The notes beneath the pieces were generated by a model that did no database searches, was not told where the DNA came from, and saw nothing but the letters and a program-made list of their open reading frames with translations. Below are positions 26,012 through 61,453 of a DNA stretch of 64,000 nucleotides, piece after piece. The position numbers and the translations under genes were made by a program. The first letter of the stretch is position 1. Each line of letters opens with the position of its first letter. The stretch is from NCBI GenBank assembly GCA_048939245.1, contig JBHLPR010000003.1, positions 17,895 to 81,894 on the forward strand. The letters run 5' to 3'. Source of the DNA: Promethearchaeota archaeon. GTDB lineage: Archaea > Asgardarchaeota > Hermodarchaeia > Hermodarchaeales > Hermodarchaeaceae.

Positions 26012-26019
26012 TTTAAATA
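26012..26019 (+). promoter_or_regulatory. Putative TATA box for the 26041 RNA candidate
   Basis: TTTAAATA starts 29 nt upstream of the first stem base. Confidence 0.4.
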
Positions 26020-26040
26020 ATTTCTACTAGTCTCCCTTCT

Positions 26041-26155
26041 GAAGGAAGCGAAGGGATAAGGATGTAATGTTGTGTCCGCATCGTTCCTCGCCCTCCCCTC
26101 GCTCCCCCTACCTCCCCTACCTTCCCCTCTTTTCAATCGCACCTTCGCTTCCTTC
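26041..26155 (+). ncRNA. Candidate small RNA: 14-bp terminal stem with C/U-rich loop
   Basis: gaaggaagcgaagg (26041-54) is the exact reverse complement of ccttcgcttccttc (26142-55). Confidence 0.5.
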
Positions 26156-26254
26156 TCTAATTTCTTCAAACCATTTTCCCCAGCTTGATTGTCATCTTGA
26201 ATATTCTTTAGACATAAGACTATTAGATATGCTGTAGCACAGTGGGACATTGAG

Positions 26255-58046: not shown

Positions 58047-59360
58047 CTAATTAAACGTCAATGACTGTCCACAAATTGCAGCTTTAGCTGTAAATCCAAA
58101 CTGTTCACGCAATGTCTGAGCAAGATTTTCACATGAGGCGGCTTCCCCGTGCATTGTGAGAATAGTGGGATTTCCTTGGGTTTGTTTCAGATAGTTCAAT
58201 ACCTCTTTACGACCCACATGGCAGGAAAAATCAAATGAAGCTACTTTTGCCTTCACATGATAAGTCTTAGGTTGATCATGATATCCCCCGAGATTAATTA
58301 TTCCGCTTTCAAGTAGTTCAGCACCAGGAGTACCTGGTAACTGCTTTCCGACAAGCAACACACTGCTCTTCTTGTCTGCAGCGATTCTTCGCAGATATAA
58401 TTGTGCTGTTCCACCCTTCAACATCCCCGCAGGTGCAATAACAATTGCTGGCTCATTGAGTGCACTTTTCCGCTCGGAATTATTTTGAATAAAAGAAGTT
58501 TCTTTGGTTGCTTGATTAAGGTTGGAACCACCGGTGAAAGCTTTTGCATGTTGTTGCATAATTCGGGTAACTTGGCGTGCCATGCCATCGATAAAAATTG
58601 GATAGTCTAATCCTCGATGGCGGTGCTGATTTAGCACTGTAAGAATTTCTTGTGCTCGCCCTACAGCAAAGGACGGAACTAATACGGTGCCACCTGATTC
58701 CAACGTCGATCGACTCATATCAACAAAGGTCTTCTCTACTGTTTGACGAGATGGGTGCTCTTCACGGGCATAGGTACTTTCGATGATTATGAGGTCAAGC
58801 TCGCCCAATGAACGAAGCCCTGGTGCTCCTTTAACCAATCGCGTATTGGTCGTGTTTATATCTCCAGTGTATAGGATGCGGGCGGCTCCACCTCCGTTAG
58901 CTTCTGTTTCAACTAAAATTGAGGCACTCCCCGGGATATGACCCGCATCGTGGAGGGTAAATTGAAGCTTGGGGTGTACCCGTATTGGTTCACCATAATT
59001 GACTGTGTGCGTGTTACGAAGAAGCGTCTTTACCTCTTTGGTTTCAAATCCTAAGGATTCTCCGTTTATTCGGAGCATATCTTTCAGAAGCAGCCTAGCC
59101 AATTCCTTAGTTAATTTAGTTGAATACATTGGAACCCGCTGGGTTTGACTACCGCTGATAAACGGCAGGCTTCCACTATGGTCTAAGTGGGCGTGAGAAA
59201 GAACGCTTGTGAGGTTTCGTGTAGATGTTGGAAGGGGGACACGTTGGGTCCCTCTGAAGGCGGTGCCATAATCCATGACAATTCGAGCTCCTGCCTGTTC
59301 CACGAGAACAGCTGAGGCTCCAACTTGGTGGCAGCCACCGAGAAAAGTTACTTTCGTCAT
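58047..59360 (-). CDS. MBL-fold beta-CASP ribonuclease (aCPSF2-like)
   Basis: SHAHLDHSG, AGHIPGS, TGD, ESTY, FAVGRAQE, SCH. Confidence 0.9.
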   Translation of the reverse strand: MTKVTFLGGCHQVGASAVLVEQAGARIVMDYGTAFRGTQRVPLPTSTRNLTSVLSHAHLDHSGSLPFISGSQTQRVPMYSTKLTKELARLLLKDMLRINGESLGFETKEVKTLLRNTHTVNYGEPIRVHPKLQFTLHDAGHIPGSASILVETEANGGGAARILYTGDINTTNTRLVKGAPGLRSLGELDLIIIESTYAREEHPSRQTVEKTFVDMSRSTLESGGTVLVPSFAVGRAQEILTVLNQHRHRGLDYPIFIDGMARQVTRIMQQHAKAFTGGSNLNQATKETSFIQNNSERKSALNEPAIVIAPAGMLKGGTAQLYLRRIAADKKSSVLLVGKQLPGTPGAELLESGIINLGGYHDQPKTYHVKAKVASFDFSCHVGRKEVLNYLKQTQGNPTILTMHGEAASCENLAQTLREQFGFTAKAAICGQSLTFN

Positions 59361-59391
59361 TTTCTTTCATTCCCTCTATTTGGGTAAATAT

Positions 59392-59594
59392 GACAAGTTG
59401 ACCCGTATCTCCGAATCGTGCTCTGCTGATTCGGGTTGGTCGGGTTAGCTAGGTGTTTCGTTCACTCTGCCTCATCTGAAGATTTCAGTTCATAATCGAA
59501 GTCTTCGCGCAGGTGAATTATCGTCGTTTCGTCTCAAATCCAATCATAGGAAATTATATGATCGAGACACGACGTGGAACACGTATCTCTTGTC
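59392..59594 (+). ncRNA. Candidate ~200-nt multi-branched structured RNA
   Basis: Nested stems cover almost the whole segment, with eight G-U pairs on the + strand (details in findings). Confidence 0.6.
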
Positions 59595-59637
59595 TGACTG
59601 TGAGACATTAACACAGGTTTTTAAATCTTGCTAATAA

Positions 59638-60570
59638 TTAGGCAGGTCCGCTAGGAAAGGGGAGCATTCCGAATAAGTCCTTATAACGACGGCGAAGCAT
59701 TTCAAGGGTCTCAACGGGGACTGGAACAGAACCTAACTCTGCTTTCTCTGGGCTCGGTCCGTGGTAATCGGAGCCTCCTGTGAGCGTCAAGTTATACCTT
59801 TTTGCCAGCGTCATGAGTTCAGCTAGTCTTGACTCGATGCTGGTATACCAGTCTGGAGCTTTGCCTGCTACCTGCTCATAAGGATAGTAGTATTCAAGGC
59901 CTTGAAGGCGGCTGTTGATAAGGTCGGTAATTAACACGTTGGGTTCCACATCAACGGTTAAAGGATGTGCGATGACCGGAACGCCTTTTGCGTGTAAAAT
60001 TGTCTCAATTCCCTGCTCGACGCTAGGTCGGGGGCGGTCAACATATGCAGGGCGACCATAGCCGAGATATTTGTCAAAAGCTTCTTCAATTGAATTCACG
60101 TGGTTATGGCGAAGGAGGACTCGGGCAAGATGTGGACGCCCGGAGGATTCCCCTTTTGCCTCGGCTTCAACTTCACGTTGATCTACTTCAATACCCAGTT
60201 CTCGGAGTTTGGCAATCATCTTAGGTAAGCGCTGTTCACGACCAACCCGCATCCATTCAAGGAGAGAACACAAATCAGCCTGTTGGGTGTCGAGGTAGAA
60301 ACCAAGAAGATGGACGTGCTTGTCTTGCCAATTGCAGCTAATTTCAACACCGGGTACAACCTCAATTCCAAGATTAGTGCCTGCACGTAATCCTTCTTCA
60401 ACACCCTGAATGGTGTCATGATCCGTAATGGCTACTCCGACTAATCCCAGGGCATGCGCTTTGCTAACCACCTGGGTCGGTGACTGGGTTCCATCCGACG
60501 CTGTCGTATGTGTATGCAAATCAACGAAGCGTTTCACCGTGACTCTTCTCCCAATGGTTACATCAGTCAA
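59638..60570 (-). CDS. PHP-domain phosphoesterase (TrpH/YciV-like)
   Basis: DLHTHT..SDG, ITDHD, GVEIS, GRPHLA, AHP, GGSDYHG. Confidence 0.93.
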   Translation of the reverse strand: MTDVTIGRRVTVKRFVDLHTHTTASDGTQSPTQVVSKAHALGLVGVAITDHDTIQGVEEGLRAGTNLGIEVVPGVEISCNWQDKHVHLLGFYLDTQQADLCSLLEWMRVGREQRLPKMIAKLRELGIEVDQREVEAEAKGESSGRPHLARVLLRHNHVNSIEEAFDKYLGYGRPAYVDRPRPSVEQGIETILHAKGVPVIAHPLTVDVEPNVLITDLINSRLQGLEYYYPYEQVAGKAPDWYTSIESRLAELMTLAKRYNLTLTGGSDYHGPSPEKAELGSVPVPVETLEMLRRRYKDLFGMLPFPSGPA

Positions 60571-61453
60571 TCACTAATTCGGGTAAAAGTTTTCGGATTA
60601 CTTTCAGGGATTCTAAGGCATCTGCTCGGTTCAACTCGAAAATGATGGGCCCATCAAAACCTCGATTCTCAAGAGTGGTCAAGAATTTAACAATAGGTAA
60701 ATCTCCTTTACCCAATGTTTTATGATCATAGTAGGGAAACCGCTTCCCCTCCACACGTTTGAGCGATCCATCGTGAAGATGAATTTCAAGTAACCTACTA
60801 TAATAACGGTCGATAAAATCGAGAACATCAGATGAACCTGACTGCCCAGAGAGTACATGCCCGGTGTCCAAACACACTGACGTATCCAGTCGTTCAGCAA
60901 TATTCCACGTGATTTCAAAGGGAAATTCAATAGATTCCAAGGCAAATTTCCGCGAGGGAACCTTCGTCCGTTGAATGAGTTCACGTATACTTTGTTCTGC
61001 CAGATTTCCCATAATCAACGAAATCATGGGCTGATCATCTCCCCCAATGTCAAATTCGCTGAATTCAGCGCCAATCCAGCCTGCATTATGGACTACGTAC
61101 ACCTCTGGATCAAGAGGTTCAGCACGCTGCACAGCCTCTACGAGGCAGGCAACTGATGCTTCTCGAATAAAGGGATTGGGGCTAGCTGGCTCAATCGACC
61201 ACAAGGGCAAATGGGCGGTATAGGTCAAATCTAGTTCTTCTTTCACTGCAAGTAAAGTCGAAATCTGCCTTTCGGAAAGCGCTTCAGGAAGCACATATCC
61301 AATATCAAGGGTAAGTTCCATTAAGGAGAATCCATGCTCATGAGTTAAGCGAGCAATCTCGGCGAAGTCAAATCTGTTTAAATCAAAGGATCCGCCTGCT
61401 GTGAATTGCCCGATCACTGTTGACCAGTCAAGGGCTGTAATTCCAAATCGCAT
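60563..61453 (-). CDS. Xylose-isomerase-like TIM-barrel protein (CbiR-like cobamide-remodelling phosphodiesterase candidate)
   Basis: YTAHLP, ALE, LDTGH, EIHLHD, DH..LG.G, IFE. Confidence 0.7.
   Translation of the reverse strand: MRFGITALDWSTVIGQFTAGGSFDLNRFDFAEIARLTHEHGFSLMELTLDIGYVLPEALSERQISTLLAVKEELDLTYTAHLPLWSIEPASPNPFIREASVACLVEAVQRAEPLDPEVYVVHNAGWIGAEFSEFDIGGDDQPMISLIMGNLAEQSIRELIQRTKVPSRKFALESIEFPFEITWNIAERLDTSVCLDTGHVLSGQSGSSDVLDFIDRYYSRLLEIHLHDGSLKRVEGKRFPYYDHKTLGKGDLPIVKFLTTLENRGFDGPIIFELNRADALESLKVIRKLLPELVID

Follow-up and report, generated by a model that had tools for sequence, protein, structure and literature searches.

Genomic context of the element

The window (the whole 64,000-nucleotide stretch of DNA that was analysed) contains a structured element of 203 nt, which lies within a 277-bp gap separating two genes of the minus strand (Table 1). 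The gene downstream of the element encodes a protein with an MBL, beta-CASP and RMMBL core that matches the catalytic core of aCPSF1. Its beta-CASP core is not accompanied by KH domains and is thus assigned to the aCPSF2 type, according to the KH-based classification of aCPSF1 and aCPSF2 (PMC3553952). The characterised beta-CASP enzymes of the aCPSF2 type are 5'-to-3' exoribonucleases (PMC3792030; Table 1 of PMC3553952). The first 425 positions of the protein also match the model of Cas14 from type VII CRISPR systems; however, the score of 212 bits is far below the cut-off of 800, and neither cas genes nor repeats are present nearby, thus the match reflects shared ancestry only. On the other side of the gap, the PHP-domain gene is preceded by a gene (60563-61453) that is recognised by the model of the cobamide-remodelling phosphodiesterase CbiR with 138.8 bits against a cut-off of 105. 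The CbiR-like gene overlaps the start of the PHP gene by 8 nt, thus the pair is probably co-transcribed.

The class comprises 19 genomes in all, 15 in the genus of the source genome and four in a sister genus. Orthologs of the beta-CASP gene were identified in 17 of these 19 genomes and none were found outside the class, where the best match has at most 43% identity. Most genomes of the class encode a second beta-CASP copy with 44-47% identity. By these protein comparisons, the gene is a Hermodarchaeia-specific paralog.

Table 1. Predicted features of the locus in the minus-strand reading; coordinates are window positions.
Feature	Coordinates	Strand	Basis and remarks
PHP-domain gene (3',5'-bisphosphate nucleotidase / RNase AM-like), upstream	59638-60570	-	Pfam, NCBIfam; gene order
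TATA box TTTAAAAA	59618-59625	-	12 nt past PHP gene stop; purine-rich BRE-like bases just upstream
Predicted transcription start	59594/59595	-	24 nt past last TATA base; first base of P1
Leader element, 203 nt, covariance model R1 family	59392-59594	-	Folding, homologs, covariation
P1, 5' half GACAAG	59589-59594	-	Pairs with 59392-59397 (CUUGUC)
P1, 3' half	59392-59397	-	Helix 1 of covariation table
P2 long helix, 5' strand	59576-59588	-	Pairs with 59447-59459; helix 3
P2 long helix, 3' strand	59447-59459	-	Helix 3; G012 transitions
Arm A (arm 3 of the original prediction)	59522-59574	-	First hairpin of minus-strand RNA; helices 6-8
Arm B (arm 2 of the original prediction)	59460-59518	-	Helices 4-5
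Arm B invariant asymmetric internal loop	59470-59481	+ CCUCAUCUGAAG; minus CUUCAGAUGAGG	Invariance across alignment
Arm C (arm 1 of the original prediction)	59400-59446	-	Helix 2
Shine-Dalgarno-like GAGGG in conserved AGAGGGAAUGA	59372-59376	-	17/17 orthologous loci
beta-CASP start codon	59358-59360	-	31 nt past element
beta-CASP ribonuclease gene, 437 aa	58047-59360	-	Pfam, NCBIfam

Folding of the element and search for known RNA families

Folding with ViennaRNA yields a closing stem (P1), a long helix (P2) and three arms, and every stem listed in the original prediction, which had described the element as a highly structured RNA candidate, was found at its position. In the source genome, the + strand has a minimum free energy (MFE) of -72.5 kcal/mol and a z-score of -4.94, a value equalled by none of 200 dinucleotide shuffles, whereas the minus strand reaches -55.7 kcal/mol with a z-score of -2.82. 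The entire minus-strand leader of the source genome has a z-score of -1.2.

The element belongs to none of the 4227 families of Rfam 15, in agreement with the expectation that it is an unrecognised RNA. The scan returned no match at the gathering score in the 64-kb window, no match with E<=10 at the locus 59300-59700, and no relevant match with E<=1 at four related loci. The proposed absence of a tRNA, SRP or RNase P identity holds as well. ARAGORN found no tRNA. The archaeal SRP RNA model (RF01857) does not match the element, which is missing from eight of the 19 genomes, and a canonical SRP RNA is encoded elsewhere in 16 of the 19. An SRP RNA was not found with RF01857 in the source assembly, which is 88% complete, and is probably absent there because it is unassembled. 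The archaeal RNase P RNA model (RF00373) does not match the element either; the canonical gene lies on contig C31 of the source genome and scores 167.5 bits.

Distribution and covariation

The element is single-copy in the source genome, and 10 other genomes of the genus carry a single-copy homolog at the same syntenic site with 67-83% identity. In total, the site is occupied in 11 out of 15 genomes of the genus and in none of the four genomes of the sister genus, and, across all 19 genomes, the covariance model gave zero matches outside one genus. Three extra distinct copies, with the same gene order, came from exact-pattern scans of metagenome and species-representative collections. Wherever the flanks are available, the PHP gene stop is followed by the TATA box, the element and the beta-CASP gene. 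The element or a variant leader (see below) immediately precedes the gene in each of the 17 genomes with an ortholog, and the two genomes of the genus without the ortholog are also without the element. Thus, of the suggested link to the two flanking nucleases, the part concerning the beta-CASP gene is borne out, and the PHP gene takes part in the same gene order where the flanks can be seen.

Covariance model R1 aligns 14 copies, from the 11 genomes and three contigs, over the full length of the model. Standard pairs make up 82.8% of the pair cells of this alignment, compared with 28-44% in slid controls, and two-sided changes occur in 26 of 72 pairs, compared with 4-9 in the slid controls; the observed covariation score is reached by none of 500 shuffles. 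The 6 bp of P1 are invariant in all 14 copies, and P2, with 94.8% of its cells paired, is mostly invariant as well, thus P1 and most of P2 are uninformative with respect to covariation. The compensatory changes are located in the three arms, including eight pairs with two-sided changes in arm B and 13 out of 18 pairs in arm C, the two-helix hairpin of which is kept in per-sequence folds. The same type of folds shows that a divergent clade retains each hairpin via register slips and paired deletions; the arm A hairpin is retained there with a register slip. The hairpins are long and imperfect, with bulges and 8-12-nt loops. Compensatory changes that maintain hairpins of this kind point to selection on a folded single strand. 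The alignment thus confirms that the predicted structure has been conserved in evolution beyond chance, and the presence of a real, conserved and strongly folded RNA element at 59392-59594 is confirmed.

Promoter and strand of the element

The TATA box, which reads TTTTTAAA on the + strand, is invariant at eight out of eight bases in all 11 to 14 copies, as well as in the variant leaders of genomes G010 and G007, and the 23-nt spacer between the box and the element is gap-free in every copy. For comparison, the 5' end of the RNase P RNA in the source genome lies 24-26 nt past its own TATA box, and a second unannotated small element of the window, at 26012-26158, starts 23 nt past its own. Given the invariant box at a fixed spacing, the minus-strand transcript should begin at the first base of the element, G59594, and the element would therefore be the leader itself and not its antisense. 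The original prediction had also noted the minus-strand TATA box, and its invariance and fixed spacing in all copies strengthen this observation; however, the idea that the leader of the beta-CASP gene is the exact antisense of the element is not retained. Within the 31 nt that follow the element on the minus strand, the conserved AGAGGGAAUGA is followed by the ATG, and this interval contains no U-tract. The Shine-Dalgarno-like GAGGG is unpaired in the whole-leader fold, which revealed neither an alternative fold that sequesters the Shine-Dalgarno site nor a conserved anti-Shine-Dalgarno segment. An upstream open reading frame from an invariant AUG in the arm B loop was rejected, as its length and frame vary among the copies.

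The original prediction placed the RNA on the + strand, antisense to both genes, on account of better folding and of eight G-U pairs that would be mismatches on the other strand. The better folding is confined to the source genome: averaged over 11 homologs, either strand has an MFE of about -60 kcal/mol, and the mean z-score is -3.67 for the + strand and -3.18 for the minus strand. The consensus folding energy is -54.6 (+) versus -55.1 (minus) in the close clade and -44.2 (+) versus -51.7 (minus) in the far clade. The argument from the eight G-U pairs is likewise specific to the source genome. In an unbiased count, in which the helices were derived separately for each strand, G.U and A.C are symmetric among the homologs. 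For helices common to both derivations, the single-sequence deviations amount to 17 A.C (i.e., minus-strand G.U) and nine + strand G.U, a suggestive lean toward the minus strand that is not significant. In genome G012, P2, which is otherwise invariant, carries two transitions that give wobble pairs on the minus strand only, whereas two conserved U.G pairs of the + strand (columns 94/126 and 75/198) are C.A mismatches on the minus strand. Unpaired bases comprise 45% A, 19% G, 20% U and 16% C in the minus-strand folds, and 36% U, 28% C and 7% G in the + strand folds. An A-rich loop composition such as 45% A with 16% C is what natural structured RNAs typically show.

An independent + strand non-coding RNA of approximately 200-230 nt, antisense to the beta-CASP leader and ending at the T5 run at 59618-22, would agree with the best fold in the source genome, the slightly better mean z-score of the homologs and the conserved U.G pairs. 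The T5 run begins 23 nt past the element on the + strand and could also terminate a + strand transcript. However, it forms a part of the TATA box, and the full invariance of TTTTTAAA at a fixed spacing suits a TATA box rather than a terminator. Moreover, no TATA-like box is found 20-30 nt upstream of the element on the + strand, where the conserved Shine-Dalgarno and start region of the gene is located, and the spacing on this side is shifted in G013 by 12 nt plus a block of about 190 nt. The U/C-rich and G-poor unpaired bases and the variant leaders, which fold better on the sense strand, also speak against this reading, and we consider it unlikely. Thus, the context favours the minus strand.

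The GTGACA word that opens the element on the + strand (59388-59397) recurs 8-9 nt to its right (59603-59609) in most homologs; on the minus strand, the right-hand copy immediately precedes the predicted start. The element thus appears to be flanked by a short direct repeat, in addition to its terminal inverted repeats GACAAG/CTTGTC. These repeats, together with the symmetry of the wobble statistics between the strands, would suit a DNA-level feature or a relic without RNA function, for example a decayed inverted-repeat mobile element. We regard such an origin as very improbable, given the compensatory changes that keep long imperfect hairpins and the occurrence of a single copy per genome at a constant locus. 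An active mobile element is discounted because the element is single-copy, and a MITE or another small mobile element was rejected on the grounds of copy number and synteny.

Variant leaders in related genomes

Genomes G010 and G007 and all four members of the sister genus (g2) share the same promoter, which is followed by a structured leader of about 190 nt, a small ORF and the beta-CASP gene. These variant leaders differ from the element; however, they are partly homologous to it, sharing the first 100 nt or so with arm A, which has a homologous hairpin in the leaders of G010, G007 and g2. The local alignment score between a variant leader and the element is 46.5, compared with 21±2.8 for shuffles. 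In six out of six variant leaders the sense strand folds 5-12 kcal/mol better than its complement, and it has the better z-score in five of them; their 5' ends are sequestered, too. G010, which is the closest by protein identity (81%), and G007 keep the gene but not arms B and C or P1. An inversion of arm B in these two genomes was rejected, since the opposite-strand alignment is no better than shuffles. The element itself can also be followed by a small ORF, as in G013, where it precedes a Shine-Dalgarno site on the same strand, a conserved ORF of 37 aa and the beta-CASP gene.

Comparison with known structured RNAs

Several other RNA classes were compared with the element and rejected. The minus strand contains CAGAUGAG followed by CGAAAC, which resembles the core words CUGAUGA and GAAA of the hammerhead ribozyme; however, the topology is wrong, as one helix strand and no full stem II lies between the words, U4 is replaced by A, and no hammerhead model matches at E<=10. 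By inspection, a C/D box sRNA or k-turn is not supported, since CUGA on the + strand has no conserved partner box and the geometry of tandem sheared G.A pairs is lacking. An H/ACA sRNA is not supported either, as the internal loop of arm B has 6 nt on one side and 1 nt on the other and thus does not form a two-sided pocket.

The closest parallels are found among the leaders of ribonuclease genes. The E. coli genes rne, rnc and pnp encode ribonucleases and have autoregulatory leaders. Similar to the rne 5' UTR (RF00040) and the rnc and pnp leaders, the element directly precedes a ribonuclease gene as a long, lineage-restricted 5' UTR composed of multiple conserved hairpins, and the ribosome-binding site is free. 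Its placement in the 5' UTR of the gene's own mRNA is predicted from the TATA box, the spacing, the Shine-Dalgarno site and the gene order across 17 genomes. Unlike these leaders, the element is found in an archaeal host behind a TATA promoter, the enzyme is a beta-CASP protein and not RNase E, RNase III or PNPase, any feedback is presumed, and there is no sequence or structure homology as judged by Rfam. A second parallel is provided by the protective 5' stem-loops of E. coli ompA and of B. subtilis aprE and ermC (the latter acting against RNase J1). P1 resembles them in pairing the 5' end from nt 1-2; however, the element is far larger, with 203 nt and three arms, and the invariance of its internal loops suggests a role beyond steric blocking. 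Finally, like the Rfam motifs of Weinberg et al., it is a conserved intergenic element with covariation and a fixed gene association, although it is outside Rfam 15 and restricted to Hermodarchaeia (Asgard archaea).

Proposed function of the leader

Based on the comparative evidence, we propose that the element represents an unrecognised RNA family, most likely a lineage-specific structured 5' leader of the mRNA for an aCPSF2-type enzyme. We assign a probability of roughly 0.7 to the view that the element, read on the minus strand, is the structured leader at the 5' end of the beta-CASP ribonuclease mRNA. The RNA would begin with the first base of the element, about 24 nt past the invariant TATA box, and its initial 203 nt would adopt a closed fold, with P1 pairing the very 5' end to nt 198-203 and P2 bearing the three arms. 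Between this fold and the start codon would lie a stretch of about 15 unstructured nt, followed by a free ribosome-binding site. The paired 5' end and the invariant loops would most likely set the stability of the beta-CASP mRNA. We propose stability control because the 5' end is paired or sequestered in both leader types, the loops are invariant and the enzyme is a predicted exoribonuclease. The leader might block 5'-end-dependent decay; alternatively, the encoded nuclease might bind or cut the leader, which would create a negative feedback loop like that of the E. coli rne, rnc and pnp leaders. Such a feedback or stability mechanism is put forward tentatively, whereas the explanation as a whole, i.e., the leader assignment together with its mechanism, is held with moderate confidence.

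A different role for the same strand would be that of an RNA excised from the transcript and acting in trans, for example as a partner or guide of the CPSF73-like nuclease, with its position reflecting co-expression. Ends closed by P1 are known from stable small RNAs, the invariance of P1, P2 and the arm B loop suggests sequence-specific recognition, and the linkage to the nuclease gene is strict. On the other hand, the persistence of the gene in G010 and G007 without arms B and C and P1 means that the exact RNA is dispensable for the enzyme, and there is no terminator or known processing signal past P1; a trans-acting RNA is thus an improbable alternative. Even less probable is a ligand-sensing riboswitch that controls the nuclease gene. 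A 5' UTR with multi-helix junctions whose junction and loop nucleotides are invariant would be compatible with it, but the range is very narrow (one genus), modules turn over and arms are swapped among close relatives, neither an alternative pairing that hides the Shine-Dalgarno site nor a terminator was found, and the downstream gene is neither metabolic nor transport-related. The fast modular turnover is more readily reconciled with a leader that a protein recognises than with a riboswitch or an essential RNA partner.

Asgard archaea are the closest prokaryotic relatives of eukaryotes, and, to our knowledge, their cis-regulatory and structured RNAs are almost wholly uncharted. Long structured 5' leaders are uncommon across archaea. 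The element is a clean candidate in this respect, supported by covariation, absent from Rfam and tied to a lineage-specific paralog of CPSF73-like ribonucleases. As a feedback target or a 5'-end shield, the leader would constitute an archaeal equivalent to the autoregulatory rne, rnc and pnp leaders of bacteria and offer a handle on what an uncharacterised nuclease recognises. The arm swaps and the gain and loss of the small ORF among close species provide a natural experiment on leader evolution. More speculatively, and with low probability, a stable RNA of about 200 nt could be freed from the 5' end of the transcript to form an RNA-protein machine with the CPSF73-like nuclease, or the element could represent the first Asgard-specific class of riboswitch-like sensors. 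The U7 snRNP, which contains CPSF73, is an RNA-assisted beta-CASP nuclease and would have a prokaryotic parallel if the released-RNA reading were true.

Small ORF and other observations

The small ORF between the leader and the beta-CASP gene has its own Shine-Dalgarno site and follows the pattern M..NKTS...S[LI]E[QR]I[FI]..AWGFH* in its 37-aa form. This form occurs in three genomes of the genus, namely G013 (L045:2864-2977, minus strand), G010 (L044) and G007 (L052); in the sister genus, a 29-aa variant (MQxKT...) is encoded by at least two genomes out of four (G016 and G017). The ORF is missing in the source genome (at 59361-59391) and in nine others, with the deletion located between two copies of A[CT]GATTAC, and this query found no copy elsewhere in the genomes that miss it.

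On metagenome contig L074 (1850-2733), the beta-CASP ortholog is interrupted near codon 128 and falls into two reading frames, which is either a frameshift or an assembly error. The minus strand of the element at 59449-59481 reads CAGAUGAGGCAG.GUGAACGAAAC, a hammerhead-core-like string with an unfit stem topology. In the small element at 26012-26158, a TTTAAATA box lies 23 nt ahead of a 14-bp terminal stem that encloses a C-rich interior.
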